Part shown: positions 31,442 to 61,036 of the stretch, piece after piece
Layout: each line of letters opens with the position of its first letter
Position numbering within the stretch: the first letter of the stretch is position 1
Translations under genes and position numbers: made by a program
DNA from: a virus
Reading direction: 5' to 3' (one strand)
Virus record (IMG/VR): IMGVR_UViG_3300026097_001455
Coordinates: 16,862 to 80,861 of that record
Length of the DNA: 64,000 nt
The notes under the pieces: model-generated
Databases searched by the model: none
What the model saw: the letters and a program-made list of their open reading frames with translations, nothing else
What the model was told of the DNA's origin: nothing

Positions 31442-32539
31442 TTAAACGTCTATGTCAAGATTAAACGTGATTAAGTTAGTGTAAGTTTTTTCTACTGGTC
31501 GATCAAGCTTCGCAACTGCAATCAACTCACTATTTTTGTTATACATACCAATTTCGGTTACATAAATAGAGTCAAACCCATTAGTACCATTTTGAAGTTC
31601 TTGCAAGTTAAAGGCAAGGTCCCAAGACGGGTTGGTTGAGAATGAAAACTCACCTGGCAACGCCAAACAAACGACAGATGTTCTGAAGTTAATGTTTATA
31701 TCGGTATAAGTTAACTGAGAATTTGCTGAGCCGCCTGTGAAATAGACATTTGTAGTTCCAGAGTTAGAAGCGTTGGTATATTGATCAAACCCTTCGTTCC
31801 AAGGAATGTTGTTAACAATGTCTGGGTGCGTTAATACCATAAATCCTTTATCAAGAACTGCAAACCCAACTGGAATATCATAATTGTATCCCTGATTTGT
31901 AGTTGTAGGATAGTTTTCTGTAATTGATGTCACCGCTAAATTAACTCCTGACCATGGTCTATTATCTGTGTTGATGTCGGCAGAATCAACATCTGAATAT
32001 GAATGTGCAGCTGGTCTATCAACAAAAGGTGAAACATTCCAGGTATTTCTTGGTGTAAATGTAGTTACACTAGGAGTTCCTGCATTTGTTGTTCCTGTTC
32101 TTGGTAAATTTACATCATCAGAAAAAAGAAAAGATATATTATCACCGAGTAATGTGGAGTTTTGAGATTTAGTTAGTTGTCCATAAGTAGATGAAACAAC
32201 CGTCTTAGTTGAACTAGAGCCTTGAGGCACTGTAAAAGTAATACTTCTACCATCAATTATTTCACTATACTCCTCTCTAGGTATTGGGCAGATTACTATA
32301 TTATCAACATTTAATTGCTGAAGTTCTGGGTTCTGCAAAGAAAGAGTTGACCCTGTAGCAAATTGAGCTGCTTCATGTGGTAGCCTAAAAGAAAGAAAGT
32401 AATTAGCTTCTTTGCTAGTAAGGTTAGTTCTATCACAAAGCGTGTAGGTAAGACCGCTTTCGCTTATCGCTCTAAAAGTGGAATTCTCTTGCTTTGTTGA
32501 TATTAAACTTGTTATTGGTTTATATGGTACGTTTGCCAT
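31442..32539 (-). CDS. Tail/baseplate structural protein
   Basis: C-terminal YVTEIGMYNKNSELIAVAKLDRPVEK, tail-collar (P2 gpH N-terminal)-like motif. Confidence 0.65.
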   Translation of the reverse strand: MANVPYKPITSLISTKQENSTFRAISESGLTYTLCDRTNLTSKEANYFLSFRLPHEAAQFATGSTLSLQNPELQQLNVDNIVICPIPREEYSEIIDGRSITFTVPQGSSSTKTVVSSTYGQLTKSQNSTLLGDNISFLFSDDVNLPRTGTTNAGTPSVTTFTPRNTWNVSPFVDRPAAHSYSDVDSADINTDNRPWSGVNLAVTSITENYPTTTNQGYNYDIPVGFAVLDKGFMVLTHPDIVNNIPWNEGFDQYTNASNSGTTNVYFTGGSANSQLTYTDININFRTSVVCLALPGEFSFSTNPSWDLAFNLQELQNGTNGFDSIYVTEIGMYNKNSELIAVAKLDRPVEKTYTNLITFNLDIDV

Positions 32540-32558
32540 CTTTTTTTAGTTTTATAGT

Positions 32559-33095
32559 TTATGCTGTTGCAAATTGCTGACTTCCACCACCGCTAGTAGC
32601 GCCAAACACACCTGTAAACCTAACTGTATATTGAATTGCTGCAGATGTTTGGTTGGTATCTAATCCATACACAGTAAATGTAAGGGTTTTTGGAATGCTT
32701 GTTGGTTGAGACGGAAGTCCTAATGGATTATCTGCAATCCAGTTTCTTAAATCAGTTCTATATTGAGAAGGTATCCCTGTTTGATAGTCATAGTATCCAT
32801 CTGAGTAGGAATTGTTTTTCTCGCAAAAAGTTACATAAAACTCACTTGAGTTTGGTTGAGGTAAGTGAAATTTTAAATAACTTGCCCCCTGCGAGCTATC
32901 AGATGTTAGTGGAACTACTATTTTGTTTCCTCCTATACTTATCGCATTAAGAGGGATATTAAATGAGCCCGTAGGTCCAGAAACTGTGTGTGGTTCTGAA
33001 AAAACAGTTCCATTACTCAGGTTAGTGGTAGTGAAATTTACTACCTGTGCCATTGGAAATCCTATATTTTGTGGGTCTTGATTTGCTGTTGCCAT
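32559..33095 (-). CDS. Probable virion protein
   Basis: S/T/G/N-rich, inside the structural operon. Confidence 0.55.
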   Translation of the reverse strand: MATANQDPQNIGFPMAQVVNFTTTNLSNGTVFSEPHTVSGPTGSFNIPLNAISIGGNKIVVPLTSDSSQGASYLKFHLPQPNSSEFYVTFCEKNNSYSDGYYDYQTGIPSQYRTDLRNWIADNPLGLPSQPTSIPKTLTFTVYGLDTNQTSAAIQYTVRFTGVFGATSGGGSQQFATA

Positions 33096-33112
33096 TTTGT
33101 TTTATTTTTTAA

Positions 33113-33583: not shown

Positions 33584-33623
33584 GTTCTATCTTTTTAATA
33601 TAAATATCTCAATTTAAAAAAAC

Positions 33624-35660
33624 TTAGAAATCTATTTCTAATTGGAAAGCTAAGTATCTTGATGAATTCTTTTTAATTGGAAATGTTGGCTTACCAACTG
33701 CAACCAATACGTTATTATTATTTAGAACCCCAACTTCTGTTATGTAAGTGTCTGTATCAAGCAATCCATCAAAGCTTGAGTTTTGCGAATTATTGTATTG
33801 AGGGTCTGGAAGCTGTACTGTCATTATAGACTTAAACACAGTCGCTCTTATAGATGCTTTTATGTTACCGAAGAAAAATGATTCATTCCCAAAGGTAAGT
33901 CCATAACTATCGTCATCGTTATTATCGTGAAATGTGTTGTCAAGAACATAAGTGCTTCCGCTTACATAGTCTTCTCTTGAGGTTATAAACTGAAAACCTG
34001 CTAAGTTATTAGGGTCAATCGTTAAACTTCCTGTAGAGCCTGTATATAAGCCGTTACCAGTTCCTCCCGAAGACATTAATCTCCATCCATCTGTTGGTAT
34101 TGTATCTAAATCGACAGAAGGGCTAGTTGTCAAATCAACTTCATTTACGAGTAGCTGTACTTTATTTGCATTCCAACCAGTTCCAGAAAGGGCGCTCATA
34201 TTACTAGAGTTTCTCATGTAAGGAAATGACGAAGAATTAAAGTATGCCCTAAGGTATTGAGGATTCCCAGAAGAGTCTTCAACTCCATCTATCCTCTGAA
34301 TATATTGACACGGCAAAGATTGAGGGTATCCATAAGAACTACCTGAGGCGTATTCTGAATCACTTTCTGTTATATAAGTCACAAAGTATGTGTACCCGCT
34401 TCTAAGCACTCCTGTTGAATTATTTGTATTAAGAGGTGTCTTAGGAACAGTTGTTGATTCCACGGTTAATGGGGGGAGGGTGTATGATCTGTTAGACTTA
34501 TATGTCAACGCTGTTAGTAATTCAGCATCTGTTATCACAATAAGTTTTAGTTTATGATAAACTCTACCTACAACAAAATTTTGAGCCGAATTTCCATCTC
34601 TAAGTTCTCTATATGTTGTCTGAGCTGCTGCATCAAATATTGTCGAGCCTGCAGAATCACTTAACTGTATTCCATAAGAAGTTTCTGTTCCTATATTTCC
34701 AGGGTATCTGTGCCACTTTACATTTGGAATATCTATTACAACACTTTTTTCAACAAGCTGTTCTGCATACGTATTTCCAGTGTACTCATTTGTGTAATGA
34801 ATAACTCCAAGCTGTCTAGTCTCATCTTCAAATCCAAGATATTGCTTAGTTCCGTTGTATTCTATAGAGCCATATGTGGTATAACCACTTATTGAGGCGT
34901 CCGTACCTTCAACAGAGCTTGTTCTTACTATGTTCATATTCCACACTCTAGTGTTAACTGTTGCAGCAGAACCGTAAAAATCTTCAACTCCATTAAATGG
35001 ATAGAAATAAGTATTTAAAACTTGAGATGATGTTGTGCCTGTTCCTCCAAAATTAGGAACCTCCCTATCAAGAGTTACTACTGAAGTTCCAGTGTCAGCC
35101 GTCATTACTCTGTACCAAAGGTCGTTAATTGACTTTCCTGAGTTAATTAGCTCAGATGAATCATACACAAACCCACTTGCCTGAACTGGCTCCCAAGGTA
35201 TGTAAATTAGATCACCAGCAACAGGAATATATCCAGTTCCCCCTCCAGCAAGAGTTATTTCATTTGTCCCATCTGGAGTATATGTGGAGTAGTCTATTGT
35301 GTTAGAACCAATATATTCATCTGAATCAATCGCCCAAGAATTTGTTGAGCCTGTGAAAAATCCAGTAGAATCAGTGCTTGCTGTTATTATCTGTGTTGCA
35401 GAACCAACTGTAATAGGAAATGCATTGGAGCCATCAAAACTCGTTGGCGTTGCAAATCCAGGAGCTGAGTCCTTAGGGCTTAGTACTCTGTTGCAGCAGT
35501 CAATATCATACGCCCCAGTTCTATCAATGCCATAATCTATCTCTCTATCAGATACAATTGCATTATTAAACGTAAGCTGTCCGAGGGACAGAAGTTGTCT
35601 CCCAGCATCGGTAAGTTTTATGTTGATGAACGTTGTCGGCTCTTTTGGTAAATAACTCAT
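33624..35660 (-). CDS. Tail/baseplate structural protein
   Basis: N-terminal KLTDAGRQLL...SDREIDY and C-terminal YITEVGVLNNNNVLVAVGK. Confidence 0.65.
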   Translation of the reverse strand: MSYLPKEPTTFINIKLTDAGRQLLSLGQLTFNNAIVSDREIDYGIDRTGAYDIDCCNRVLSPKDSAPGFATPTSFDGSNAFPITVGSATQIITASTDSTGFFTGSTNSWAIDSDEYIGSNTIDYSTYTPDGTNEITLAGGGTGYIPVAGDLIYIPWEPVQASGFVYDSSELINSGKSINDLWYRVMTADTGTSVVTLDREVPNFGGTGTTSSQVLNTYFYPFNGVEDFYGSAATVNTRVWNMNIVRTSSVEGTDASISGYTTYGSIEYNGTKQYLGFEDETRQLGVIHYTNEYTGNTYAEQLVEKSVVIDIPNVKWHRYPGNIGTETSYGIQLSDSAGSTIFDAAAQTTYRELRDGNSAQNFVVGRVYHKLKLIVITDAELLTALTYKSNRSYTLPPLTVESTTVPKTPLNTNNSTGVLRSGYTYFVTYITESDSEYASGSSYGYPQSLPCQYIQRIDGVEDSSGNPQYLRAYFNSSSFPYMRNSSNMSALSGTGWNANKVQLLVNEVDLTTSPSVDLDTIPTDGWRLMSSGGTGNGLYTGSTGSLTIDPNNLAGFQFITSREDYVSGSTYVLDNTFHDNNDDDSYGLTFGNESFFFGNIKASIRATVFKSIMTVQLPDPQYNNSQNSSFDGLLDTDTYITEVGVLNNNNVLVAVGKPTFPIKKNSSRYLAFQLEIDF

Positions 35661-35793: not shown

Positions 35794-38277
35794 ATGGCAA
35801 CACCAGCAGAAACAGCAACCACTATATCTTTAGCATTCAGTCCAGGGGAACAAATATTGTTTGCACCAACTGGGTCTGAGTCTATTTTTACATTTGGTGA
35901 TTATAGAGTAGAAAGAGATGGTGGGCCAGATATATTAACTGGCACTTCTCAGAATTTGCAGTTTACGCCATTCTCTACGCTTAACAACTTAGGTGCATCT
36001 GGATTCAGCCCAAATTTTTCAGTATCAGTTCAGAACAACGAGCTTAAACCAGTACATAAAGACCCATACAGCTACACCTATTTTGGCTCATTCTACACTG
36101 AAGTTGCAAACGCAATAAACAACGTAATTAATGATTTTCCTTATGCAGCTCTTGCATACGACAGTTTTGAGGGGGATACGATTATAGATTACAGCCAGAC
36201 ATTCAATAACATAACTGGACAGAAACTTTCTACTTTTAAAGTTCCGCTAGATGTAGTAACAAATCAAGGGTTTATACTATTCGGCTCTGGCTCTCCAATT
36301 AACAATGCAGTAAGCTTAATGACAAACACAAATATGTTTGAAATTCAACTTAGTGGAGCTACAACTGCAAAGACGGATTCTTATGAAATAAAGTCATATT
36401 CTTTTACAGCTGGTACTACAAATATATTAGAGTTTGAAATATACGGGCACTTGTTTGAGGATGCTACAGAAGCATATACTGGACAGACTAATAGCAAATT
36501 ACCTCTTTATATAAGACCCTCAAGAAAGAGGATGACAGAGTATAATAGAAGTATATCAAGAATAGAGAAGCAATTACTTGGCTCTGGTCTTCTTGATATT
36601 CCAGATGTAGATGACGAAAAAAGAGAATGGACATATAGGGTTCCGTGGCCTAGAACAATTGACGGATTTAACCCAGACACAAGAGGTGCAAACTTTGAGA
36701 CTTTTAAAGATAATGTATTACTTCTTGCTGGCAATGTAGATATGGATAAGACTGACATCATGTTAAAGACTATGTTGCCAGACAACTATCTTCAGTTTGA
36801 TTCAGATCAGCAGATATACAAAAAATTAACTTCATCATATGCTAAACAATTCGATGAGATCAAGAATTTCATTGATAACATGGCGTATGCTCACACTATC
36901 ACATATAATGAGGAAGAAAATATACCTGACAAATTCTTGGTTAAACTAAGTAATTTGTTAGGATGGAAGCTTTCTAGTACTTTTAACGAGATAGACTTGT
37001 TTGATTACTTAGCAAATGATCAAGACTTACAAGGAAATCAATATGCTTATTACAACATAGAGCTGTGGAAGAGAATTTTAATTAATATAAATTGGCTATA
37101 CAAGAGAAAAGGTACTAGAGATGCGCTTCAGTTTTTATTTAAACTAATGGGTGCTCCAGACTGTCTTATAGTATTTAATGAATTTATATATGAAATTGAT
37201 TCTACTTTATCATCTGGCACAACAGTTCCAATAGGAACTCCTCCAAGTAGTCTTAAGACAAATCCTAGAGGCTACCCAAACTATGAGTGGAGTAATTTAG
37301 AGTTTCAAGAAGGAGGTTTAGGAAGAGGTACTGGTCAGGCGTACATAAATCAGTGGGAACCAGAATTTAATCCATTAAAAAAGGTAGATAACATCAAAGT
37401 TCAGGTTGGAGATACTGGATTTACTGGGAGTGAAAACATAATGAACACCAAGGAGCTTTGTGCAACTTTGGACCCTGCTAACGCAATTGAGTGTGACGTT
37501 TTTGATTGGTATAAGCTAAGTGGTACTTGCTGGGTTTGGGGAAGTTCTGCCCCACCATTTAGTGCAAATACAGTTCCGTTCGAATATGCTATTGATGATT
37601 GTGAATTTGTTAATCCAGATAGAATTACTGGAATGACGTTCAATGATTACATGGAGTTTATTTACACATCAAACATTGACCCTACGAATAGAAAAACTAA
37701 TGACCAGGGACATACGATGTTTACATATCCTGAGCTGAAGAAGATTTATATGAACTATTATTTGTTAGCCGAACCTCAATCAAATAGGCTAACAATAAAG
37801 AAGCTTGAGGCATTTCTTGATCTTATGGAGGTTAATTTCCAGGATTATCTACTTCAACTTATACCTGCTACAACTATTCTTGAATGTCAAGGGACTACAT
37901 ACAGAAACACTGTATTTCATAGACAAAAATTTGTTTACAAGGACGGTATAAACAAAGGTTCAGAATTTCAAAATTCTTTACCTCCAGATATTAGGCCAGG
38001 TGTAACACCTATAAAGGTAACCTCTAAAGTTAATGATTTCCAAAAAGCAACTATTAATCCGATAGTCATAAATTCAGACGTTAGTCAAGGAATAAGATCA
38101 TCAGTTAACGCAATAGAGATAAAAGGTTATATTAACGTAAATAATATAGGTACAGGTATTGAAGGTTTCGATGTATCTGGAGATATTAATCTGCCGAGCG
38201 GAAGTTCTAGTCTATCTCTGTCAAACGCCCCAGTTAGAATATCTCAACCAGCAAATCTAGCAGGGCTAAGCTCATAA
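35794..38277 (+). CDS. Baseplate wedge protein (P2 gpI / T4 gp7-like motif)
   Basis: IPDKFLVKLSNLLGW...WLYKRKGTRDALQFLFKLMG. Confidence 0.65.
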   Translation: MATPAETATTISLAFSPGEQILFAPTGSESIFTFGDYRVERDGGPDILTGTSQNLQFTPFSTLNNLGASGFSPNFSVSVQNNELKPVHKDPYSYTYFGSFYTEVANAINNVINDFPYAALAYDSFEGDTIIDYSQTFNNITGQKLSTFKVPLDVVTNQGFILFGSGSPINNAVSLMTNTNMFEIQLSGATTAKTDSYEIKSYSFTAGTTNILEFEIYGHLFEDATEAYTGQTNSKLPLYIRPSRKRMTEYNRSISRIEKQLLGSGLLDIPDVDDEKREWTYRVPWPRTIDGFNPDTRGANFETFKDNVLLLAGNVDMDKTDIMLKTMLPDNYLQFDSDQQIYKKLTSSYAKQFDEIKNFIDNMAYAHTITYNEEENIPDKFLVKLSNLLGWKLSSTFNEIDLFDYLANDQDLQGNQYAYYNIELWKRILININWLYKRKGTRDALQFLFKLMGAPDCLIVFNEFIYEIDSTLSSGTTVPIGTPPSSLKTNPRGYPNYEWSNLEFQEGGLGRGTGQAYINQWEPEFNPLKKVDNIKVQVGDTGFTGSENIMNTKELCATLDPANAIECDVFDWYKLSGTCWVWGSSAPPFSANTVPFEYAIDDCEFVNPDRITGMTFNDYMEFIYTSNIDPTNRKTNDQGHTMFTYPELKKIYMNYYLLAEPQSNRLTIKKLEAFLDLMEVNFQDYLLQLIPATTILECQGTTYRNTVFHRQKFVYKDGINKGSEFQNSLPPDIRPGVTPIKVTSKVNDFQKATINPIVINSDVSQGIRSSVNAIEIKGYINVNNIGTGIEGFDVSGDINLPSGSSSLSLSNAPVRISQPANLAGLSS

Positions 38278-40038: not shown

Positions 40039-40983
40039 ATGACTGGCGAATTAATACCTACTGGCATAACCTTCGGAACAGGGAGGAAATCTATAAACAC
40101 TTCTTTTAGTGGAACTGCTGAATTGAATAATATTCAACTTGACCCAGGGGGTGATTTTTCTGGTGGTACTGGAGGTGGTGTCATCTACTCAGGTGGAACT
40201 GATCTTTATGACATATTTGGCTCAGGAGGTGGTTCTGGAGATATTACCAGAGTTCAGCCAGGAACTAACATCACAACTGGAGGTACTGCGAATTTACCGA
40301 TCATAAGCTTGTCTGACGATATTATAATAAATTCAATATCAGCAACAACAGTATCAGGAGGAACTATTTATTCTGGAGATACAAATCTTGAAAATATATT
40401 TTTAACTATTTCTAACACAAATTTTATACCACTTAGCGGTACAGATGGTGTTAATATTGTAACAGGGGATGTTGAATTTGATGATGACTTTGGGTTAACT
40501 TGGCACACTGGCTTAGATTCTATTGTATACGGAAGCGCAACAGGCTTAATAGAGGTGAACTCAAGTTTGGGGTTTGACTTCTCAACTGGAGCTATATTAT
40601 CTGCAGGAACTGATTTATATAGTATATTCTGCACTGATTGCAGTACAGGAACTACAGCTTCTGAAACAACATTTGACTTTAAAGCAGTTGGTGGGGCACT
40701 AGACTGGGATGTTGATGGAAGTTCTTTGAATGCTAAATTTGTAATTACCGCAAATACTACTTTAAATGTTGTTAATGTAAATTCTGGTGATTTTGGTACT
40801 CTTAAAATAACTCAAGATGTAGCTGGGGGTCATGAATTAACATTTGGTGTTGGTACACATAAAGTTGTGAATGGAGGTAGTGGTTCAGTATCACTTACAT
40901 CAGCAGGAGGAGCAATAGATGTTATATCATTCTTTTATGATGGAACCGAATTTTTATGGAGCCCAGGATATAATTATACTTAA
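40039..40983 (+). CDS. Tail fibre-like protein
   Basis: IYSGGTDLYDIF-type repeats; C-terminal LKITQDVAGGHELTF...AIDVISFFYDGT domain. Confidence 0.65.
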   Translation: MTGELIPTGITFGTGRKSINTSFSGTAELNNIQLDPGGDFSGGTGGGVIYSGGTDLYDIFGSGGGSGDITRVQPGTNITTGGTANLPIISLSDDIIINSISATTVSGGTIYSGDTNLENIFLTISNTNFIPLSGTDGVNIVTGDVEFDDDFGLTWHTGLDSIVYGSATGLIEVNSSLGFDFSTGAILSAGTDLYSIFCTDCSTGTTASETTFDFKAVGGALDWDVDGSSLNAKFVITANTTLNVVNVNSGDFGTLKITQDVAGGHELTFGVGTHKVVNGGSGSVSLTSAGGAIDVISFFYDGTEFLWSPGYNYT

Positions 40984-46028: not shown

Positions 46029-49000
46029 TTAGATAATTTCAATGGGCAATCCTTGTAGTCCATCATTAAACGATTCTCCACCACATATTGAGGAAATGGG
46101 TGAGCCTTGAAATCTGATCGCAAACAACCCACCGTTATTATTTGTGTTTGGTGTTTTAAATAAAGCTCCATCCATTTTTACAGAACTTTCCCACTTACTT
46201 CCACTTCCCCCAAATGTACCACTCGTATCACAACTTTGGTTGTTCTCATTGTATTGAGTTCTTAGGTTCGTATATATAGAAACCAGATAATAATTAGGAG
46301 GAGTAGTATCTGCAGCAACTGCTGTAGAACCTATTGTATAGTCATAAAAAACAGAATGAGATGAAGGAGTCCAAGCAGAGCCATCATCTTTTCTGTGAGT
46401 AATGTTTATAAATCTCATTGTATAATTTGCAGTATTATATTTACTGGTTCCAAAATCAAAGTTAGAATTACCTGGTAATTCAATAACAAGATTATCCAAC
46501 GCTATGTTTGTTGCATCGAATACAAAAGATTCTCCAGGGGCTAATTCAACAGCCGTCCCTGGTATTAACACATCTATATTACCATTGTTAGTTATTTCAA
46601 TTTGTAAAAACTGATAGTTTTGTGAGCCATGTATTCCTCCTACAGCTCTAGAAAAACATTCTTCTCTATCGTTAGGACCTGAGTTTTTAACTGCAGATTT
46701 AATCCTTCTAGTGTTGCCACCTCTTTGGTAGTATATTGACTGAAATCTATAAACAGCAGATGTAGGAATAACTTCTGGTTCAATGTCATTTCTTTCCTTC
46801 GGATTAACCAGTCTATACAAATCAAGCGAGCCTTCTGAAAAAGTTGCATCATCATCTAGTGCAAGAGCTAAATCACGATCTTCGATATTGTAAACATCAA
46901 TAAATTGATTTTGAGCACCGACAATTATACCCTGACCTTCCTCTCCCAAAGAAAGAACACCTGGACCAAAAGCAGAGCTAAGCGTTGTATTTGGAGCTAC
47001 TGAAGGTGGAAATATTGCATCTCCCCAAGGGTTTATAGAAATTGGCGGCCAACCTTCGGGCTTTAACCAGTATCCATACCCGCACTCTACTCTTTGATAC
47101 TTCTCTCCATTTAATACACTTGACGCCCCTGGGTCAATCGGGAAGGCTGGATTAGATGGTTCATAACCATTGGAATACTTTTCATTCCAAGCAACTCCTC
47201 TTTCGTATTTGTATATATAACTCCTTGTTACTTCTTTTGAAAATCTATTTCTAATCCAGGCTGAATTTGTACTACTAAACTGAACTCCATAGCCTCCTGT
47301 ATTGGCAGCACTATTTAAAAACAGAGGAAAACCTATTTCGTCACCATCTTTATACAAAGGCTGCTCTAAGAATGCGTTGTTGCTAGAGTTTGTAAGCCTT
47401 GTGTTAATATCTCCTCTGTCAAAATTTGGGTCAGATGGTCTTTCAGGAATTCTATATGGCTCTGGATAATTGTGGTCCCAAGGTCTGTCGTATGGCGGAG
47501 ACACTAAAGGAGATACGGTAGTGTTTTTTCTATCTGAAAGCTCCCCTCTATTTAAGTGATAATGATCTCTACCCACCCATCCTGGTGACGAAAAACCCCA
47601 ATCTCTTTGAAAGCCAGTTGTCCTAAATGTAGTAGAAGGCTGGTCGTAGTACATCTTCATCTGATAACCCGCAAGCCACACGCCTTTTTGCGAAGGGAAA
47701 TTTATTGGAGCACCGTTTGCATTAGTTCTGTAACCATTAGGGTCATACATATTTGCACGAAGCTTAAATGCTTTAAATCCATGGTTGAAAAAACTTGCTC
47801 GTCTCTTAAGTTGTATAAACTCACTCCCCCACTGAAGCGTTTGATCTTCGTCTTTATCATAAATGTCTTGTATTTCTACAATTGGAATATTGGTTGTGGG
47901 GAACCCTTCCTTAGACATATCTCTCACATCAACATTAAGAGACGGAGCAAAATTTAAGAGTTCAGCAGAGCCTAACAAATTACCTTTATAAGCCATTGGT
48001 GCTACATAATAAGTAGCCCACTTTCTAAGATCATAATTAACAGTAACATTCAACTCCGTGTATCCAGTCTGAGTATTCCCCCACGCAGGCACAACATCAA
48101 TTGGAAATTGTTTAAATGAAAAACTAGGAACTGAATCCACTACAACATCATCACCAGTTCCTGGAGGAAATGGATAAAAATTAAGCGCTATTTCATCTTT
48201 AGTAAGCCCTTGCTTAAACATATCTACTTCAAACACAACAATCTGAGTTCCTATTGGAGCATCATAAATAATAAACTCTCCATTCTCATTTGTTGTAGTT
48301 ACGTACTTATACTGATCTGGAACTGTTGTAAACTGAGATGCTGATCTTAAGTACTGAGTATCAGCGCTAAATGATTCTATGTTAAAATACTCGGAAGGGT
48401 TTGTGTTTTCTCTAAGATTAAGAAAAAGTCTGTCTCCATTTTCAGAAATAGACGAAGACGTTGGGTATTCTTCAGAGGGGTTGAATATGCCTATAGGAAC
48501 ATTCCTAAGAGGAATCTTTATAGGGTTCCCTTCAATATCTTTTATTGTTTGAAGTGCTGTGAGTCTACCAAACACAACTCCTGTATCAGCTTCTTGAGTT
48601 GGTATACTATTAACTAAATTGTTATAAATGTCTAGTGTATCAAGCGTTCCATAACTTCTGTTTAGCTTTACATTCACAAAGAAATCATCAATCTCTTGGT
48701 AATTAGAAAACACGAACTCACAATGCCAAGGCGTAGTTGTTGACACAGAATTTGGCTGTATCGCCAGAGTTCCACTACCATTAGGGTCAAGCGCACTTAC
48801 TCCTCCATTGGGAGAGAGAACTGTCTGAATAGCTTTAGTTAAGCCTGACTCAATCTGCCTAATCCTTTCTTCTTCAATAATTGTAGAATAATCCTCAGTA
48901 TAAGAATATCCAGTTAAATAATTATTAGTATATGAGGTGACAGGCACATAGTTGTTGTCGTCATTAAGAGTCCATATGTTTTCGCCATCAAAAGTGGAAG

Positions 49001-49175
49001 CTCTAACTGGTTGATTAAGAGAATTAAGCTCTACTATGGTTGGAGATATATTGGTAGAGTTTTCATCAATACTGTTAGTATTTTGGACGTATACATCTAA
49101 GTGTGTACTAAAGTACATTAGAGTGGTGCCGCTAGTAAACTGCTTTAACTGTATCTCTTCCCTTTCAAAACTCAT
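46029..49175 (-). CDS. Large baseplate/tail protein
   Basis: 1048 aa; GVVFGRL...YVTTTNENGEFIIYDAPIG Ig/transthyretin-like motif. Confidence 0.6.
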   Translation of the reverse strand: MSFEREEIQLKQFTSGTTLMYFSTHLDVYVQNTNSIDENSTNISPTIVELNSLNQPVRASTFDGENIWTLNDDNNYVPVTSYTNNYLTGYSYTEDYSTIIEEERIRQIESGLTKAIQTVLSPNGGVSALDPNGSGTLAIQPNSVSTTTPWHCEFVFSNYQEIDDFFVNVKLNRSYGTLDTLDIYNNLVNSIPTQEADTGVVFGRLTALQTIKDIEGNPIKIPLRNVPIGIFNPSEEYPTSSSISENGDRLFLNLRENTNPSEYFNIESFSADTQYLRSASQFTTVPDQYKYVTTTNENGEFIIYDAPIGTQIVVFEVDMFKQGLTKDEIALNFYPFPPGTGDDVVVDSVPSFSFKQFPIDVVPAWGNTQTGYTELNVTVNYDLRKWATYYVAPMAYKGNLLGSAELLNFAPSLNVDVRDMSKEGFPTTNIPIVEIQDIYDKDEDQTLQWGSEFIQLKRRASFFNHGFKAFKLRANMYDPNGYRTNANGAPINFPSQKGVWLAGYQMKMYYDQPSTTFRTTGFQRDWGFSSPGWVGRDHYHLNRGELSDRKNTTVSPLVSPPYDRPWDHNYPEPYRIPERPSDPNFDRGDINTRLTNSSNNAFLEQPLYKDGDEIGFPLFLNSAANTGGYGVQFSSTNSAWIRNRFSKEVTRSYIYKYERGVAWNEKYSNGYEPSNPAFPIDPGASSVLNGEKYQRVECGYGYWLKPEGWPPISINPWGDAIFPPSVAPNTTLSSAFGPGVLSLGEEGQGIIVGAQNQFIDVYNIEDRDLALALDDDATFSEGSLDLYRLVNPKERNDIEPEVIPTSAVYRFQSIYYQRGGNTRRIKSAVKNSGPNDREECFSRAVGGIHGSQNYQFLQIEITNNGNIDVLIPGTAVELAPGESFVFDATNIALDNLVIELPGNSNFDFGTSKYNTANYTMRFINITHRKDDGSAWTPSSHSVFYDYTIGSTAVAADTTPPNYYLVSIYTNLRTQYNENNQSCDTSGTFGGSGSKWESSVKMDGALFKTPNTNNNGGLFAIRFQGSPISSICGGESFNDGLQGLPIEII

Positions 49176-49262: not shown

Positions 49263-51158
49263 TTATATTGCAGAGGATGTGTTAGGAGTTCCTGCTGCTG
49301 TTCTTATCAAAATATCCTGTTCTGGAAATCTAACTTCAAACATAGAAGTTGGTGTTCCTTGTATTGCATTGTCTATATATGCAAAACGAGTTCTAAAAGA
49401 CCCAGTGTTTGGATTTTGAGTTCTCTCAAAAGTTGCCTGAGAGTGTCTAGTGTTTGAATAGCTTCCGCCTTCCATGTTGTATATCCTAATATCTACAACA
49501 TTTATAATGCCTGGAATATCTCTGAGCATATCAGTTATATGAGAAACGTAAATATTTTGATTCATTTGCCATTTTTCAACATCAAAGAAATCTCTAATTT
49601 CACTTATAGCTCTTGACTTAACTTCGCTAACATTAAAAGTCTTATCAACAAAAAGATCGACTTCAAGCTGAAGGTTTACAACTTTCCCATCATTTATTTC
49701 AACATAGTCATTTATCATTCTAAATGGAACCATATATCTCTGAATGTTCTGCTTTATTATACTTGTAGATACATCAAGAAGTTTTCCTCCACCATCTCTA
49801 GTCAAAACGTACATCTTGACTTTGTTATCCTCTACTTTGCCAAATATCCTAAATGGTGCTCCAAATTTTCCTGGCATCTGAAATGCCCTAGCAACATAAT
49901 CATCTAGCGTAACAGCTCTTTGTTGAGATGCGAAATTAGCTGCTATATAACTCTTAATTTCTTCAACACTTGGAAGCCCGACCCCACCAATAGCAGGTAT
50001 TGGGTTATTTGCTCTAGTTGAGGAAAGCACAGACTGAACAAGATCGGCATTAGACCCTAACGATAAACTTCTAATATTAGAAACTTCATTAAGGGTGTTT
50101 GCACCCACATTACTAAGAGGTCCTCCACCCGCTCTATATCGTATAAAGATAGTTGAATTAGATGGCACTTGTACACCCAAGGCTGTATTGTTGAGTATCT
50201 CTGAAACATCAAGATTATTTGAGTCGGGGCACTTAGTGGTATTTGTAAGACTGCTAATGTACGCTTCATAAGCATCATAATCCTTAGTTCCTCCACCAAA
50301 AGTGAGTCTGCATGTGCCGTCAGATAAGAACTCCTTTTCAAATCTTTGTTCAACTTCTACATATCTTCCAGTTTTAACTCCGTTAACATCGTTTACAGTA
50401 TCATCATCAAGAAATATTTTATCAGTAGGAAGTGAGTCTACTTCATAATACTTGTTGTCAAAATCATTGAATTCTGCAAAACTTGGAGTCCTTTGTATTC
50501 CAAGGCCATTTAATATAATTACATCAGTAACTTCAAGAACATTTTTATCTGGAAGCTCTACTTGATAAAATGGCTTAGCTTGATTTGCTGGAATTTCGAC
50601 TTTAAAAAGTTTGGTTACCCCAGCTTTAATCTTTTCTCTCTTAATTATTCTGTACCTAACAAGGTCTTGATTACCGTTAAGTATTGGCTCGATAGTTCTA
50701 TTAGCAATCCCATCAGCACTAAAGTCGCTTGCAAAATTTACTTCTTCAGTAGTTTCAAAGGTTTGTCCAGCGCCTCTAATCCTCATGCCTGGTCTATACA
50801 AGGGTAGGTAAGAAGAATCTGGGCCATCTGCTGTAGGTGGCACTTCTATAACAATATCAGCAACTGTTACTGCTGGCCTAACGCCAGGTGGGTTGTATCC
50901 AAATGTCTTAGCAAGTCTATAAACTGACTTTCTTTCTTTAACACCGTCAAGAAACAGCTCGTTGTACTTCTTATCTGTGGCATATGATAATAGATCACCC
51001 ACATAAGCATTAAGTTCAAGCAATGCCATCCCAGGAGACGCTACGTTGAAGTCTTGCCATTGCTCTGGAAAGAATGTCTTCAAATAATTGATTAGATCGC
51101 CTCTAATAGAGGTAAAGTCTCTGCTTAAGTAGTTTACTGTAACTGTTTTTTGCGCCAT
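49263..51158 (-). CDS. Baseplate wedge subunit (T4 gp6 / baseplate J-like)
   Basis: YLSRDFTSIRGDL...ELNAYVGDLLSY...LAKTFGY; FASQQRAVTLDDY. Confidence 0.88.
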   Translation of the reverse strand: MAQKTVTVNYLSRDFTSIRGDLINYLKTFFPEQWQDFNVASPGMALLELNAYVGDLLSYATDKKYNELFLDGVKERKSVYRLAKTFGYNPPGVRPAVTVADIVIEVPPTADGPDSSYLPLYRPGMRIRGAGQTFETTEEVNFASDFSADGIANRTIEPILNGNQDLVRYRIIKREKIKAGVTKLFKVEIPANQAKPFYQVELPDKNVLEVTDVIILNGLGIQRTPSFAEFNDFDNKYYEVDSLPTDKIFLDDDTVNDVNGVKTGRYVEVEQRFEKEFLSDGTCRLTFGGGTKDYDAYEAYISSLTNTTKCPDSNNLDVSEILNNTALGVQVPSNSTIFIRYRAGGGPLSNVGANTLNEVSNIRSLSLGSNADLVQSVLSSTRANNPIPAIGGVGLPSVEEIKSYIAANFASQQRAVTLDDYVARAFQMPGKFGAPFRIFGKVEDNKVKMYVLTRDGGGKLLDVSTSIIKQNIQRYMVPFRMINDYVEINDGKVVNLQLEVDLFVDKTFNVSEVKSRAISEIRDFFDVEKWQMNQNIYVSHITDMLRDIPGIINVVDIRIYNMEGGSYSNTRHSQATFERTQNPNTGSFRTRFAYIDNAIQGTPTSMFEVRFPEQDILIRTAAGTPNTSSAI

Positions 51159-51168: not shown

Positions 51169-51582
51169 TTAAAAATAAGTATGATCGTCTCCGCCTACTT
51201 CTCCAGGCTCGACAGGAACAACTACGCTAACAGTGTCTTGGAGTCCTCCTAGTTCAAGTATTCTGTAGGCTATTTTAACTTCTAATAAGTTTTGTTGCTC
51301 GGTAAATGTGAATATAATCTCATCAATATCAACCTGAGGTATGTATTCGCCAATCTTTTCTATGAGTTCTTCTCTAAGCCTAGTCTCAGAAATATCATCC
51401 CAAGGTTCAAATATATAGTCCCATAGCGGAGAATATAGATTATTACGCATAACTCTATTTCTTCTCTTTGTAGTTAAAAGAGAGATTAAGTCTGTTTGTA
51501 TCGCCTCTACTGTTGTATTGTTAGAGAAAAACACACCACCCTCTGTGGTCTCCTTAAATGGGAATTTAATACTAATCGGCAT
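51169..51582 (-). CDS. gp25-like baseplate wedge / sheath initiator
   Basis: IKFPF...AIQTDLISLLTT...LWDYIFEP...YIPQV. Confidence 0.85.
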   Translation of the reverse strand: MPISIKFPFKETTEGGVFFSNNTTVEAIQTDLISLLTTKRRNRVMRNNLYSPLWDYIFEPWDDISETRLREELIEKIGEYIPQVDIDEIIFTFTEQQNLLEVKIAYRILELGGLQDTVSVVVPVEPGEVGGDDHTYF

Positions 51583-53439: not shown

Positions 53440-53902
53440 AATGCTCTTCTAGCATTTCAAGACCTCTCATTGTTGCTAAGTATATATTTCTACCTCTTCC
53501 TTCTTCAAGGTCAAGTCTTTCTACAAAAGTTCCTTCTGGAGTTGATATTGCGACATAAACTGTTCCTGGAGGATTAGCTTCTGTACCATAACCAGTAGTA
53601 TCTGCATATCCAGTTGTTGCTATCGAGTAATCGGTTCCCATGAGAACTTTAACTTTTTCTGCCATATCACATGCAACTTGATCACTTACCTCTGTGTAAG
53701 TATCAATAAGATTCTTATCAACTCCAAGTATGTTTATCTTAGCCTTATTACTATAGACCACCGCAGAGCCTTCGAAATAATTTGAACTTCCTGGTATTGA
53801 CGTTAGCAGTCCGCTAATGTATCCTGCTGTGCAGCTTTCTGCTGTAGAAATCTTTCCACCTCTTTCTTCTAGTGCAAATTTAATTGAGTTAATTATGCTC
53901 AT
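53426..53902 (-). CDS. CinA C-terminal domain protein / NMN deamidase (PncC-like)
   Basis: STAESCTAG, SIPGSSNYF, YSNKAK, GTVYVAI. Confidence 0.9.
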   Translation of the reverse strand: MSIINSIKFALEERGGKISTAESCTAGYISGLLTSIPGSSNYFEGSAVVYSNKAKINILGVDKNLIDTYTEVSDQVACDMAEKVKVLMGTDYSIATTGYADTTGYGTEANPPGTVYVAISTPEGTFVERLDLEEGRGRNIYLATMRGLEMLEEHFKSH

Positions 53903-55871: not shown

Positions 55872-55873
55872 AA

Positions 55874-57624: not shown

Positions 57625-57993
57625 CTATGGCAAACCGAGGATAAAGTCGTTTTTTATGAAAGAGTATATTTTTCTAAATTTGTAAAGTGAAAATTGAAAG
57701 TCCTCCTCTTCAAGGCCAGAGTAATCTAATAAATATTCTTTTATTTGCTTTGAGTTCCAAAAAGAAATATCGACATTAAGGGTGTCTAGATTTGATACTA
57801 ATTCTAAAATTGACTCCAAAACAACCCTATCAGCTTCCTCTTCTTCTGGTATTGCCTCTAATTCAAGGTCAAGTGTATCAATAAGAAAATTACAAAAGGA
57901 GACACAATTACCTTTATCTATCTCCTTTGTATCATCTGCAAATAATTCTTCAATTATACGCAAAAATATTTCTTTCTTAACTTTAAGTTCCAT
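57625..57993 (-). CDS. Acidic hypothetical protein
   Basis: 122 aa; related to the C-terminal part of the sigma-like gene (IKEHTNL..KDITYSLHRFK vs LLDYSGL..EDFQFSLYKFR). Confidence 0.6.
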   Translation of the reverse strand: MELKVKKEIFLRIIEELFADDTKEIDKGNCVSFCNFLIDTLDLELEAIPEEEEADRVVLESILELVSNLDTLNVDISFWNSKQIKEYLLDYSGLEEEDFQFSLYKFRKIYSFIKNDFILGLP

Positions 57994-57998: not shown

Positions 57999-58919
57999 CT
58001 AGTATGTAAACATATCATCGTCATGACCGTAGTATTTATCCTGGTGCCTTTCAACAAACTCCTTCTTCTTGATCTTATATAATATCTTGAATCTGTGAAG
58101 GGAGTAAGTAATGTCTTTAGTCTCAAGGTTTGTATGCTCCTTAATTAACTTATATACAGTACTCTTAGTATATGCACCAATGATCTCATGATTTCGAAAA
58201 ATCTCTACTATCGCATCAGCAACCTTAGCATCATTCTTAGAAATATCTGGTCTATCTATTTCGTCTTCGAATATATCTGTAATGTATTCGAATAATGCGT
58301 AAGAGCTATCAAGGTCGGACTCTTCATCAATTTCGTATTGAGTCATTTCCTCAGCCTCGGAGCTATGATCTTCGTAGTTAAGAGAAGACTTGGTTTTTTT
58401 ATCCACAGCCTTCTTCTCATTTTGAAGATAATGCTTTGCTACAGTGCCATAAAAAGAAAAAGATTTTGTATTCTGATCTGGGTCAAAGTTACAGAATTTC
58501 TCTAAAACAAAAGACATGCAGTCGTTGTGGAGTGTCTTTACGTCAACTCCAGGTCTGAACAGTCTAAAGCTAAAGATAATATTCTCGACTAACCTAGTAA
58601 GTGGCTTGTAAATTTTGTTTCTGAATACCTCTTCTTTTTTAGCTATGATCTCTGGTCTCTTGGTGTGGTCCACCATGGACTGATTGATCGCTACAAAATC
58701 CTCATCAACCTCAAGAAATTTTTTATATCTCTTGGGATTTTTCCTATTTCGTTCAACGCTTTTTTCTACTTCTTCAAGATGTTTATCAATCTTATACTGA
58801 TAAAAATTGAAGTCGTTTTTAAGATATTCTCTTACCGCCTCTTCTGTCTCTTCGGTCCAATATTCTCTCTTCTTTTTTGCTGGCTTTTCCTTATTATGCT
58901 TTTTGTGGCTCTTGCTCAT
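57999..58919 (-). CDS. RNA polymerase sigma factor, T4 gp55-like late sigma
   Basis: Start moved to ATG 58919; YWTEETEEAVREY...LVENII...DCMSFVLEKFCNFDPD..KSFSFYGTVAKHY region-2 pattern. Confidence 0.7.
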   Translation of the reverse strand: MSKSHKKHNKEKPAKKKREYWTEETEEAVREYLKNDFNFYQYKIDKHLEEVEKSVERNRKNPKRYKKFLEVDEDFVAINQSMVDHTKRPEIIAKKEEVFRNKIYKPLTRLVENIIFSFRLFRPGVDVKTLHNDCMSFVLEKFCNFDPDQNTKSFSFYGTVAKHYLQNEKKAVDKKTKSSLNYEDHSSEAEEMTQYEIDEESDLDSSYALFEYITDIFEDEIDRPDISKNDAKVADAIVEIFRNHEIIGAYTKSTVYKLIKEHTNLETKDITYSLHRFKILYKIKKKEFVERHQDKYYGHDDDMFTY

Positions 58920-59856
58920 AAATCTTTTCTCTATCTTGGTCAAAGAAATATTCCTTTTTAGCGAGCTCCATCCAGAAGTGAATTTCGTCATTAGACAACC
59001 CACCTTTATCTGGTTCAATAGCACCTAAGTTATTAGGAATTTTAGAAGATGAGTGGCTAAACTCCTCTACATCTTTTACTCTAAAATCGTAACCAACTCT
59101 TGGAACAGTCATAACTTTAATATCGTTATAGATCATTCTCAAGAAAAATTCGTAGTAATTGCTAACTTTGAAGCTTTCCTTCATAGGGTAATATCTCCCA
59201 TCCTTCTCCTCACTATATTCTTCAAGTTCTTCAACTCTGTAAACACCAGCTAGAGGGTTAGCACAGTTGTACTTTAGAAGCAAGTTCATATCAAACTTAC
59301 CAGCTTCTTCAGAGAAGCCTTCAGCCCAACAAGCATCGTTCATAAGTCCCATAACAGCACCGTTCTTCCAGTTTCTAACAAGCGGAAGGAAAAATCCTAC
59401 TTCTTCATTCTCTTGCATGTACTCATTGGCAATGTTATACCAATTAGCTCCAAGAGCATCATCAACTTCAACAACAGACATTCCTTCATACTCTCTTTCA
59501 AGAGCAATGTTAAATAGGTCGTTGAATACTTTTGAGAAGTTACTTGTCCCAGTCTTCACAATGTTAAGTTTAACACTTCCATTAGCTTCAATCTTATTCT
59601 CCTTAGGATTGCCATCTTCATCTGTTTCAATTGTAGTGACAACAGGTTTTTTTGCAATCTCTGTTAGCTTTTCTAATTCATCATTAGAAAGACCTCCATC
59701 AAGAACAACAATATCTACTGCGTGTATCTGATTTGCAAGACCGAAAAGACATCCATTAAGATCGTCTTCGTTCTTGATCTTGTCTAGGTAAAACCCTACA
59801 AGTATATTATTTTTTGAGTCCTTCAAGTTCTTTGATTCTTTCATCTCTGTATTCAT
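58894..59856 (-). CDS. GT-A / GT2-like glycosyltransferase (divergent)
   Basis: CLFGLANQ...DIVVLDGG...VVEVDD...YEFFLRM. Confidence 0.65.
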   Translation of the reverse strand: MNTEMKESKNLKDSKNNILVGFYLDKIKNEDDLNGCLFGLANQIHAVDIVVLDGGLSNDELEKLTEIAKKPVVTTIETDEDGNPKENKIEANGSVKLNIVKTGTSNFSKVFNDLFNIALEREYEGMSVVEVDDALGANWYNIANEYMQENEEVGFFLPLVRNWKNGAVMGLMNDACWAEGFSEEAGKFDMNLLLKYNCANPLAGVYRVEELEEYSEEKDGRYYPMKESFKVSNYYEFFLRMIYNDIKVMTVPRVGYDFRVKDVEEFSHSSSKIPNNLGAIEPDKGGLSNDEIHFWMELAKKEYFFDQDREKIYEQEPQKA

Positions 59857-61036
59857 TTAAAAGTGCAATAATTGTTTCTTTCTCACCCTCAACCGTGTAG
59901 TTTGAAAGTGTATTTTCATATTTCTCTTGTATCTCTGGATTGTCCATTTCTCCATTAAGCCATTTGTCAATAGCAAGTCCAAGAACTTCTGCTGTCTGGA
60001 AGATGTCTCCATTGTTACACCAGAAACCATTCTCCTGGTTCATGTACTCCTTACCTCCAAATGAAGCCCATCCAATTGTATGAGTTCCACAAGCCATTGC
60101 TTCTAGTGGTGCTGTACCAAATCCTGCAATGTCATCTGTATAAAGATAGAATGCACATGACGAAAGTCTTTCTGCAAATTGATCTCTATCCATTCCCTCA
60201 AGCTCTTGGAATCTAATCCACTTAAGATGTGGGTAGAATGCATAAAATGTCTTGATTATGTTATAAGTCTTAAGCTTATTCTCTGGTCCTCTTGAGGCTG
60301 AGAATGCTACCATAGGCAACTTATCAGACTTCTTCTCAGGAACTTTGAAATACTCTCTGTTTATTCCTTGCTTAAATTGCTTAACGTTTAGCCCAGGCAT
60401 AACAGAACTTAAATATTCTGTAATAGCATCTGAAACAGAGATCACATCTCTAATTCCAAAGTGTTGCCACTTTTCTCCTGGCTGCATAGCGTTAAGTACG
60501 TAGAACCAACTCTGAGCAAACACAATTCTCTTACAAGATACTTGCATTGTCTTCTTCATTAGGTCAGGGAATCCTTCTGGGATTAGTAAGAAGTCTTCTG
60601 GCTTAACGCTAAGTGGAGTACATTGTACTCTGTTAGCTTTTATTTCATTACCCTTCTTATCAACTACCTCCTTATCGTTGAAGTATATCTCCTTATCTCC
60701 TAGAGGAACAATATCAATGTCAGAAACATCAAAGTCTGTCCACGTTGGGTCAAACTTGTCAAATACATTGACTTCTTTCTTTAACTTCATTGAAGCTTCG
60801 TATGAAGCTCTTTGATCTTGTCTTGGCTCATAGACAACAACAACTTTTTTCCCGTTGTCTTTTAGGTTTCTTGCAGCTCTTAGCAATACACCAATACCAC
60901 CACTAGGTGAGTTCATTGGTGGGCAATAGATATACGTTGTATACTCATCGCCTCTCAGTTTACTAATAGCGTCATCAACTATTTCATTGTGAGTTGGCTG
61001 TTTAACCTCCTCTTGTACTTCAGCATTTTTTTCCAT
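59807..61036 (-). CDS. GT-B / GT4-like glycosyltransferase
   Basis: PSGGIGVL...ISVSD...AGFGTAPLEAMACGT. Confidence 0.85.
   Translation of the reverse strand: MEKNAEVQEEVKQPTHNEIVDDAISKLRGDEYTTYIYCPPMNSPSGGIGVLLRAARNLKDNGKKVVVVYEPRQDQRASYEASMKLKKEVNVFDKFDPTWTDFDVSDIDIVPLGDKEIYFNDKEVVDKKGNEIKANRVQCTPLSVKPEDFLLIPEGFPDLMKKTMQVSCKRIVFAQSWFYVLNAMQPGEKWQHFGIRDVISVSDAITEYLSSVMPGLNVKQFKQGINREYFKVPEKKSDKLPMVAFSASRGPENKLKTYNIIKTFYAFYPHLKWIRFQELEGMDRDQFAERLSSCAFYLYTDDIAGFGTAPLEAMACGTHTIGWASFGGKEYMNQENGFWCNNGDIFQTAEVLGLAIDKWLNGEMDNPEIQEKYENTLSNYTVEGEKETIIALLNEYRDERIKELEGLKK

Follow-up and report, generated by a model that had tools for sequence, protein, structure and literature searches.

A four-residue word, [Ser/Thr]-[Gly/Ala]-x-[Ser/Thr] ([ST][GA]x[ST]), was found strongly over-represented in seven tail proteins encoded on a 64,000-nucleotide stretch of viral DNA, bases 16862-80861 of the 80,861-base IMG/VR virus record IMGVR_UViG_3300026097_001455 (the window). 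The excess depends on the order of the residues, is restricted to one set of proteins in one phage lineage, persists at constant density while individual sites turn over, and co-occurs with a GT-A-like and a GT-B glycosyltransferase (GT) gene, located at 58.9-61.0 kb. The word had been picked by eye in a preliminary description of the sequence as a candidate site of virion glycosylation. Its narrower core, [ST][GA]xT, may be an acceptor tag for phage-encoded O-glycosylation; the probability of this reading was put at slightly below one half (about 0.45).

Motif counts in the window

Sites of [ST][GA]x[ST] were counted with overlapping matches, and each protein was compared with 2000 composition-preserving shuffles. 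Seven proteins (those named motif-rich in Table 1) were individually significant against global shuffles and against shuffles in blocks of 30, 15 and 8 residues. With 8-residue blocks, the protein at 33624-35660 had 17 sites against 6.00 expected and that at 51682-53439 had 14 against 4.73, with 0/2000 shuffles reaching the observed count in each case. Pooled over the seven proteins, 74 sites were found against 18.7 expected from shuffles (z 12.8) and against 24.6 from shuffles in 15-residue blocks (z 10.9). The by-eye counts of the preliminary description (roughly 15, roughly 15 and about 10 in the proteins at 33624-35660, 51682-53439 and 40039-40983, and several in five others) were close to the recounted numbers in Table 1. 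Its claim of recurrence above chance was upheld for the seven proteins under global and local shuffling and failed for the large protein at 46029-49175 (6 against 3.43, p 0.13), which for [ST][GA]xT had 5 sites against 1.6. The protein at 43954-46026 was not significant in the shuffles either (3 against 1.69, p 0.24).

The signal was specific for the order of the residues. Permuted orders of the same residue classes were enriched only 1.0-1.7-fold in the seven proteins. The last residue was Thr in 58/74 sites, and the narrower core [ST][GA]xT was counted 58 times against 10.1 expected (z 14.7). The forms SG.T, TG.T, SA.T and TA.T were each enriched 5.5-6.3-fold and the Ser-ending forms 0.6-2.8-fold, while G-x-[ST] without a preceding Ser or Thr ([^ST]G.[ST]) was depleted (32 against 48.0). 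All 8000 words of the type ab.c were scanned; TG.T, SG.T, TA.T and SA.T were the top four (p 1.7e-9 to 6.4e-6), and the next word followed at 1e-3. Since these four words rank first in an exhaustive scan, the worry over a motif chosen by eye is removed. At position 2, Ala was enriched as much as Gly ([ST]A.[ST] 3.9-fold), and Asn ([ST]N.[ST] 0.86-fold), Asp ([ST]D.[ST] 0.61-fold) and Ser were not enriched. Hydrophobic residues (I, Y, L and F, 1.5-2.1-fold) were enriched just ahead of the motif at -2/-1 and again at +8/+9.

The motif-rich proteins are high in Ser, Thr, Gly and Ala (Ser/Thr fraction 0.15-0.24); low complexity or local composition as the cause was ruled out by the block shuffles and the permuted orders. 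The codons of the motif matched the background usage of the same proteins, with both TCN and AGY serine codons present. Because codon use was that of the background and the enrichment ratio was independent of GC content across 153 related loci (see below), the signal lies at the protein level, and a DNA-level cause was rejected.

Other proteins of the window did not share the excess. No site was present in the gp6-like baseplate wedge protein (1.5 expected), the SbcCD fusion (1.1) or the SNF2 helicase (0.6), which bears out the near-absence from these proteins reported in the preliminary description. The remaining 68 open reading frames (ORFs) of the window, called as the longest ATG/GTG/TTG ORFs with an overlap of at most 90 bases and including a few spurious ones, together had 26 [ST][GA]x[ST] sites against 30.0 and 16 [ST][GA]xT sites against 13.4. 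The motif carriers had been described as non-homologous: no mutual BLAST similarity was found among the seven, with the exception of a 39-residue C-terminus common to 31442-32539 and 33624-35660. No internal repeats were found by BLAST in the motif proteins of the window, and the sites are dispersed; segments recurring within the protein at 40039-40983 are, for example, IYSGGTDLYDIF, IYSGDTNLENIF and ILSAGTDLYSIF. In the motif-rich proteins, neither the Bacteroidota sequon D-[ST]-[AILMTV] (15 against 18.3, z -0.8) nor the N-x-[ST] sequon of the N-glycosyltransferase (NGT)/PglB type (43 against 51.2, z -1.3) was enriched; the motif is thus distinct from the former, as had been proposed.

Distribution, turnover and structural context of the sites

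Related loci down to 25-30% identity were collected from IMG/VR by pattern scans with the wedge protein, the GT-B protein and alignments of the family of 33624-35660; the latter family is encoded on at least 593 IMG/VR stretches. From the family alignments 153 loci were taken, and all ORFs of at least 150 residues were pooled per locus. The median [ST][GA]xT ratio was 3.90, with 150/153 loci at 2-fold or more and one below 1.5; some loci are near-identical records, so that 153 is not a count of independent phages. At the single locus below 1.5, a Thr-Pro-rich linker protein raises the expectation. GC content varied from 0.23 to 0.53 across the loci and was uncorrelated with the ratio (r -0.10). 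Fibre genes of relatives without a counterpart in the window were enriched as well ([ST][GA]x[ST] 26 against 5.6 and 23 against 8.2; [ST][GA]xT 43 against 10.7). In a distant relative, a 1319-residue and a 596-residue protein (L204:175-4134 and 5354-7144) consist mostly of Thr-Pro-rich linkers with VTPTxT repeats; linker sequence of this kind is often O-glycosylated in bacteria.

Tail proteins of other phages were used as controls. Twelve baseplate, fibre and sheath proteins of T4 (7056 residues) had 21 sites against 17.0 (ratio 1.24, z 1.0), and ratios of 1.52 (z 2.4) and 1.34 (z 0.8) were obtained for eight tail proteins of Flavobacterium phage immuto and six of Microcystis phage Mel-JY01. 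The latter two are the nearest cultured relatives by the wedge protein, at only 27-31% identity. From these low values it follows that the enrichment is general neither to phage tail fibres nor to AT-rich phages. The outgroup phages without motif enrichment in their tail proteins also lack homologues of GT-B and GT-A (tblastn). A tblastn search of 50,697 GenBank phage records gave no match for GT-B or GT-A, and none for the proteins at 33624-35660 and 40039-40983, for a 933-residue repeat protein of a relative (see below) or for the motif-poor homologue P0050. No close relative of 40039-40983 was found among viral contigs by pattern scan, and phmmer against PDB gave nothing for 33624-35660, 35794-38277, 40039-40983 or GT-A. 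The motif marks a large, wholly uncultured phage lineage.

Two near-complete relatives were used to see which proteins carry the motif. The first, G001 (290,886 bases, 91% complete, wedge 61% identical to that of the window), has 303 ORFs of at least 100 residues with 219 sites against 75.9; the best 30 ORFs hold 191 of these, and the other 273 ORFs have 28 against 42.2. The enriched set comprises the syntenic tail module and a second cluster beside the major capsid gene, containing the 933-residue repeat protein (30 against 4.2), the sheath (11 against 2.6) and others (20 against 4.1, 13 against 1.4, 10 against 1.5). Within the sheath, residues 91-500 carry 10 sites against 1.81, and residues 501-802, the conserved Pfam sheath core, 1 against 0.58. 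Portal (2 against 0.7) and wedge (0 against 0.6) were not enriched in G001. The second genome, G007 (371,504 bases, 100% complete, family identity about 30%), has 394 ORFs with 324 sites against 141.2, of which 269 lie in the top 28 ORFs; the other 366 have 55 against 71.8. Here the portal had 0 against 0.5 and the sheath 5 against 2.5. The capsid protein was enriched in neither genome (2 against 1.0 in G001, 2 against 1.2 in G007). In both relatives the motif is confined to fibre, baseplate-periphery and outer-sheath proteins.

The 933-residue protein of G001 (L055:5397-8198), which adjoins the major capsid gene, contains about five tandem repeats of 71-77 residues, each with LSATTLSA[NS]TIISAGTNISSLF; after these, the C-terminal part is beta-helix-like. 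An intein with a LAGLIDADG domain is carried by a 939-residue ORF of G001 (L056:3347-6166), which lies between the portal gene and the fibre cluster.

Turnover of sites was followed in eight orthologous pairs of the window and G001 (30-62% identical), which hold 63 and 67 sites, respectively. The same alignment column was used by 26/63 window sites, and by 32/63 if six columns of slack were allowed; many lineage-specific sites stood opposite unrelated residues. Residue class was conserved at 0.76 for motif position 1 and 0.74 for position 4, against 0.53 for other Ser/Thr, and at 0.68 for position 2, against 0.52 for other Gly/Ala. For the 33624-35660 family, 449 members were found at E<=1e-3 among 1.84 billion cluster representatives, and among the matches listed (150 of the 449) each block of 15 had a pooled ratio of 2.7-5.8. 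When 82 full-length members were aligned, their 643 sites were spread over 202 columns, a spread that is inflated by alignment error at 25-35% identity; 104 sites were unique to one sequence, and occupancy of a column reached at most 39 of 75 sequences (52%).

Among 81 full-length-like homologues, 66 had ratios of 2.1-12.8 and 15 were below 2 (for example 0 against 1.5, 0 against 1.0 and 0 against 0.6). On a FastTree tree the motif-poor homologues were scattered, often beside motif-rich sisters, with 13 changes, at least nine of them forced by well-supported branches. A single motif-poor clade was rejected, the 13 changes being no more clustered than in 149 of 500 label shuffles. An IMG/VR pattern search with an alignment of the motif-poor homologues brought up only distant, motif-rich loci, and searches with P0058 and P0046 among metagenome contigs and with P0050 among genome contigs gave no match; two of the motif-poor homologues, P0058 and P0047, are encoded on contigs of 230,033 and 291,614 bases. 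The scatter on the tree shows that the fold can do without the motif, which entire proteins acquire or lose within short distances. Selection acts on motif density rather than on position. For the protein at 51682-53439, sites were largely retained across 16 aligned homologues through exchanges of Gly with Ala and Ser with Thr, and a motif-dense 110-residue insertion was present only in the window sequence and in one relative (L006).

Structure was predicted for 33624-35660 with AlphaFold2 from a 50-sequence alignment (predicted local distance difference test (pLDDT) 86.5, predicted template modelling score (pTM) 0.83). Its N-terminal 100 residues or so resemble the tailspike anchor domains 4y9v_A and 4ru4_B (Foldseek), and for the model as a whole nothing in PDB matched at E<=0.001. 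The 17 sites are distributed over hairpin and long loops, the ends of strands and the C-termini of helices; at each motif position, coil accounts for 10-13 of them, strand for 3-4 and helix for 1-3. A single turn motif (ST-turn, or beta-turn with Gly) was not recognized: no one backbone context recurred in this model, and Asn or Asp at position 2 is not enriched. The heterogeneous context, the missing enrichment of Asn and Asp and the equal use of Ala and Gly together argue against one turn type with positive phi, and the requirement at position 2 fits a small, apolar residue better. The model of 51682-53439 from 16 close homologues (pLDDT 52.4) was too low to use.

Glycosyltransferases and competing explanations

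Of the two GT genes named in the preliminary description, GT-B was recognized by Pfam (Glycos_transf_1) and was also placed among viral clusters by the ESM Atlas. The GT-A-like assignment comes from the ESM Atlas only (features 0.98; model with a template modelling score (TM) of 0.71 to viral GT2-like clusters), and no Pfam match was obtained at E up to 5. A GT-B profile was found in 14/29 related records, among them all those with a completeness of 83% or more; completeness was 14-53% in the 15 that lack it. GT-A was present in 13/18 related records, always adjoining GT-B, and in 3/3 of those at least 90% complete. All records at or above these limits (83-90%) hold both the motif and the GT pair, within one lineage only.

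From 29.8 kb to its end, the window is fully syntenic with G001. In G001 and in L026-L031, L033 and L035, a gene for GDP-mannose 4,6-dehydratase (Gmd) directly follows the homologue of the last gene of the window. In G001, Gmd opens an island of about 22 kb with genes for a DegT aminotransferase, epimerases, a GT11, two GT10-like and four GT2 enzymes, NeuB (3.2e-62), three radical-SAM enzymes, a class IV aminotransferase, methyltransferases, a hexapeptide transferase and a PF01973 protein. In a further relative, G003 (wedge 81% identical), the flanks of the island are the same and the middle differs, with a CTP_transf_3-cupin protein (CTP_transf_3 2.9e-23), a dehydroquinate synthase (DHQS)-like enzyme, a short-chain dehydrogenase/reductase (SDR) and two weak PF01973 proteins. 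From the synteny and the position of Gmd in the relatives, the record of the window very probably breaks one gene before such an island. Genes of the ulosonic-acid donor pathway (NeuB-type synthase, CMP-sugar synthetase) were found in relatives only, as the window ends before this region. The island is not lineage-wide; PF16363 (Gmd) was found in 8/18 related records and in 1/3 of those at least 90% complete.

A LAGLIDADG/NUMOD3 homing endonuclease gene lies between Gmd and the DegT aminotransferase in both islands (L053:7696-8589 in G001, L059:8496-9311 in G003), and G003 has an additional AP2/NUMOD3 gene near it.

An ordered word that is selected for density, confined to the exposed portions of the tail, not required by the fold and peculiar to one lineage has the signature of a site read in trans; as its reader, the soluble and conserved GTs next to the late structural genes are the obvious candidates. 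[Ser/Thr]-[Gly/Ala]-x-Thr would then be a short linear tag, dense wherever the tail is exposed (fibres, baseplate periphery and, in relatives, outer sheath domains) and maintained by a lineage-specific factor acting in trans. The likeliest such factor would be O-glycosylation of the Thr, or of the first Ser/Thr, taking place late in infection in the cytoplasm of the host and carried out by the adjacent GT-A-like and GT-B enzymes. In close relatives, and probably here too beyond the end of the record, the polymorphic island may extend the glycan by supplying donors of the GDP-deoxyhexose and CMP-ulosonic-acid types and further transferases. We infer that the GTs act on proteins and read the motif, and that the glycan may protect the tail or alter adhesion. 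The sequon for virion O-glycosylation proposed in the preliminary description is favoured by the enrichment, the conserved GT pair and the island in relatives, and is plausible as far as sequences can tell. The complete picture, in which a jumbo myovirus lineage would sugar-coat its fibres, baseplate periphery and outer sheath through the [ST]-[GA]-x-T sequon and the GT-A/GT-B pair, with islands diversifying the glycan by deoxyhexose and ulosonic-acid sugars, is more tentative than the tag itself.

Several observations weigh against O-glycosylation of the motif. In the model of 33624-35660, motif sites are in loops no more often than Ser/Thr overall (59-76% against 66% coil); the mapping suggested earlier thus placed the sites mostly in loops, as had been expected, and no more so than Ser/Thr in general. 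Some sites in recurrent fibre modules, for example LSATTLSANTIISAGTNISSLF and IYSGGTDLYDIF, are possibly structural. The link between motif and GTs is a co-occurrence inside one lineage, which amounts to a single evolutionary event. The nearest solved relative of GT-B, PDB 8xsg_A (1.3e-13), is annotated as an Actinobacillus glucoside glucosyltransferase, not a protein GT. Two distant complete genomes, including G007, keep the motif and the GT pair without the Gmd island, so that the motif can exist independently of the island. Unlike in the mycobacteriophage case described below, the capsid shows no enrichment, and sugar clusters of jumbo phages are read by Iyer et al. (2021, PMC7824862) as modifying outer polysaccharides of the host.

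A structural preference of the beta-rich tail fibres of this lineage (a strand cap or tight turn of a small residue and a beta-branched Thr), with GTs that are unrelated to it and alter, for example, the host envelope, is less probable but a serious rival. Hydrophobic residues flank the motif, and several sites of the model are at strand ends or in hairpin loops, in favour of a structural role; the secondary-structure contexts are heterogeneous, however, and Gly and Ala are equally enriched where Asn, Asp and Ser are not. Conservation of the motif residues above background and the retained positions in the 16 homologues of 51682-53439 also point to structure, against which stand the spread over 202 columns at an occupancy of at most 52% and the difference of over half of the sites between orthologues that both keep about 65. 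The enriched proteins are all fibre-like, the capsid is spared, and some sites belong to recurrent fibre modules, including the 77-residue tandem repeats of the 933-residue G001 protein. Tail proteins of T4, immuto and Mel-JY01 are nevertheless not enriched, enrichment within the sheath family is limited to the variable outer region, and 15/81 homologues of the same family manage without the motif. Even if the word were structural, one would still have to explain why it is enriched five-fold in one lineage and missing from the fibres of T4 and from certain homologues within the family.

Another lineage-specific reader is improbable; this could be phosphorylation, a fibre chaperone or assembly factor, or directly selected surface chemistry, such as uncharged hydroxyl-rich patches for polysaccharide binding or protease resistance. 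The trans-acting signature (lineage specificity, turnover at constant density, dispensability for the fold) fits such a reader equally, leaving the factor unspecified, and genes for a PP2C-type phosphatase and vWA proteins are present in G001. Among the window ORFs and the 135 scanned of the 139 G001 ORFs of at least 230 residues, however, there was no protein kinase, and the two GTs are the only conserved enzymes of fitting activity found beside late structural genes. That composition, low complexity, hidden homology or a bias at the DNA level produced the enrichment as an artefact is very improbable: Ser, Thr, Gly and Ala are abundant in the proteins and the motif was first picked by eye, but the excess survives 8-residue block shuffles, is absent from permuted orders, leads the exhaustive word scan, comes with BLAST similarity limited to one 39-residue stretch and with background codon use, and was replicated in 150/153 related loci and two whole genomes. 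A role of the GTs in DNA glycosylation is conceivable but unsupported: the 135 scanned G001 ORFs of at least 230 residues contained no TET/JBP or DNA methyltransferase gene, only one for a ThyA-family protein of 439 residues.

Mycobacteriophage virions are reportedly O-glycosylated by phage-encoded GTs, with capsid and tail-tube subunits modified; we know of no defined four-residue sequon in that system. If O-glycosylation of the motif is the right reading, the two cases have in common a tailed phage with soluble GTs of its own that decorates its own virion proteins in the cytoplasm. They differ in that the candidates here are the fibres, baseplate periphery and outer sheath. A passage of a review mentions 'extensive glycosylation' in the mycobacteriophage context (PMC12582341). 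As described in PMC7157674, SgtA, a soluble GT of Clostridioides difficile, adds O-linked N-acetylglucosamine (O-GlcNAc) to Thr of Gly-x-Thr in the surface fibre protein BclA3, one of the BclA-type collagen-like spore glycoproteins. The phage motif likewise contains [Gly/Ala]-x-Thr, but the acceptors of SgtA are tandem collagen-like GPT triplets, whereas the phage sites are dispersed and require Ser/Thr before the Gly/Ala. Maf proteins are O-glycosyltransferases of flagellin Ser/Thr, which transfer ulosonic acids onto surface residues of the filament protein in the cytoplasm (bioRxiv 10.1101/2020.06.03.131540).

Reminiscent of Maf systems, candidate proteins with a PF01973 domain are encoded in G001 and G003 next to NeuB or a CMP-sugar cytidylyltransferase. 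Unlike Maf, these proteins are short (242-250 residues), none is encoded in the window, and only one exceeds the Pfam cut-off, with partial coverage (G001, 44.7 bits against 34.6, best stretch residues 5-48 only; G003, 28.1 and 30.0, below the cut-off). To our knowledge, flagellin glycosylation sites have no sequon. The soluble bacterial enzymes, acting on the Thr of G-x-T (SgtA) or on filament Ser/Thr (Maf), may serve as precedents by analogy. Chloroviruses and mimiviruses, which reportedly glycosylate their own capsids or fibrils, are said to resemble the present phages as large viruses with their own sugar-nucleotide synthesis and many GTs, independent of host machinery; they are eukaryotic viruses, reportedly with other acceptor sites and enzymes. 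Clusters of sugar-modifying enzymes with several GT families, polymorphic between related phages, are described for jumbo phages by Iyer et al. (2021, PMC7824862), and the islands of G001 and G003 are of the same character. Modification of the host envelope, as those clusters are read, does not predict an ordered tetrapeptide limited to exposed tail proteins.

No report of a sequon on phage tail proteins was found in a literature search of full texts, supplements excluded. If true, the proposed tag would be the first case of protein glycosylation directed by a sequon in a tailed phage, and gain and loss of its sites would resemble the glycan shields of animal viruses. Phage tails, the machinery of host recognition, would carry a programmable glycan layer affecting host range, adsorption, stability and recognition by grazers or immune systems, and a short cytoplasmic O-glycosylation tag with its own enzymes would become available for glycoengineering.

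Gene content and minor observations

The record is 24% complete by CheckV, which suggests a genome of roughly 300 kb; the GC content of the window is 35-37%. Replication and repair genes (SNF2 helicase, PD-(D/E)XK nuclease, SbcCD-like fusion, IF-3 homologue, amidase) occupy 1-31 kb. The tail and baseplate module extends from 31 to 57 kb, and family matches (Pfam, PHROG) were obtained there only for the gp6-like wedge, gp25 and one CarboxypepD_reg domain; the latter is C-terminal in 38293-40008 (PF13620 1.1e-9, residues 479-545). Coordinates are given in Table 1.

Table 1. Tail, baseplate and glycosyltransferase genes of the window, with [ST][GA]x[ST] sites observed against the mean of shuffles.
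Feature	Coordinates	Strand	Evidence
Motif-rich tail protein, 365 residues	31442..32539	-	6 sites against 1.85, p 0.0085; no Pfam or PHROG family
Motif-rich baseplate-peripheral or tailspike-like protein, 678 residues	33624..35660	-	17 sites against 4.45, 0/2000 shuffles
Motif-rich tail protein, 827 residues	35794..38277	+	12 sites against 2.45, 0/2000 shuffles; no Pfam or PHROG family
Motif-rich tail protein, 571 residues	38293..40008	+	9 sites against 2.40, p 0.002
Motif-rich fibre-like protein, 314 residues	40039..40983	+	10 sites against 3.74, p 0.0035
Motif-rich tail protein, 309 residues	42483..43412	-	6 sites against 1.13, 0/2000 shuffles
Large baseplate or tail protein, 1048 residues, weakly enriched	46029..49175	-	6 sites against 3.43, p 0.13, not significant
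gp6-like baseplate wedge protein, motif-free	49263..51158	-	phrog_219 4.8e-22; 0 sites against 1.5
gp25-like baseplate wedge protein	51169..51582	-	PF04965 8.5e-8; 0 sites
Motif-rich conserved tail protein, 585 residues	51682..53439	+	14 sites against 2.53, 0/2000 shuffles; includes TSAATTAATTAISATT
GT-A-like (GT2-like) glycosyltransferase candidate, 320 residues	58894..59856	-	ESM Atlas only
GT-B (Glycos_transf_1) glycosyltransferase, 409 residues	59807..61036	-	PF00534 3.6e-8
Last gene, cut by record end	63301..63996	-	phrog_1745 1.1e-68

The GT genes had been described as lying directly upstream of a late sigma gene; no family match names 57625-57993 or 57999-59024 as such. These two genes (minus strand), just downstream of the GTs, have paralogous C-terminal parts (BLAST 3e-4) and no family match. 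A sigma-70 family gene is present in G001 at L058:9764-10606. G001 also encodes a thymidylate-synthase-family protein of 439 residues with an insertion of about 120 residues (L050:1731-3050, PF00303 1.5e-87), which may be a synthase or a hydroxymethylase.

A CinA-family gene (competence-damaged protein, nicotinamide mononucleotide (NMN) deamidase type; PF02464 4.4e-45) lies within the tail module at 53426-53902 on the minus strand, and G001 encodes in addition an NAD synthase and a nicotinate phosphoribosyltransferase (NAPRTase). At 13835-14386 on the plus strand, a complete homologue of translation initiation factor IF-3 was found (IF3_N 4.4e-27, IF3_C 1.2e-30). A fusion protein of 1147 residues (26345-29788, minus strand) combines an SbcD-like phosphoesterase domain with an SbcC/Rad50-like ATPase domain; its G001 homologue has 1250 residues.

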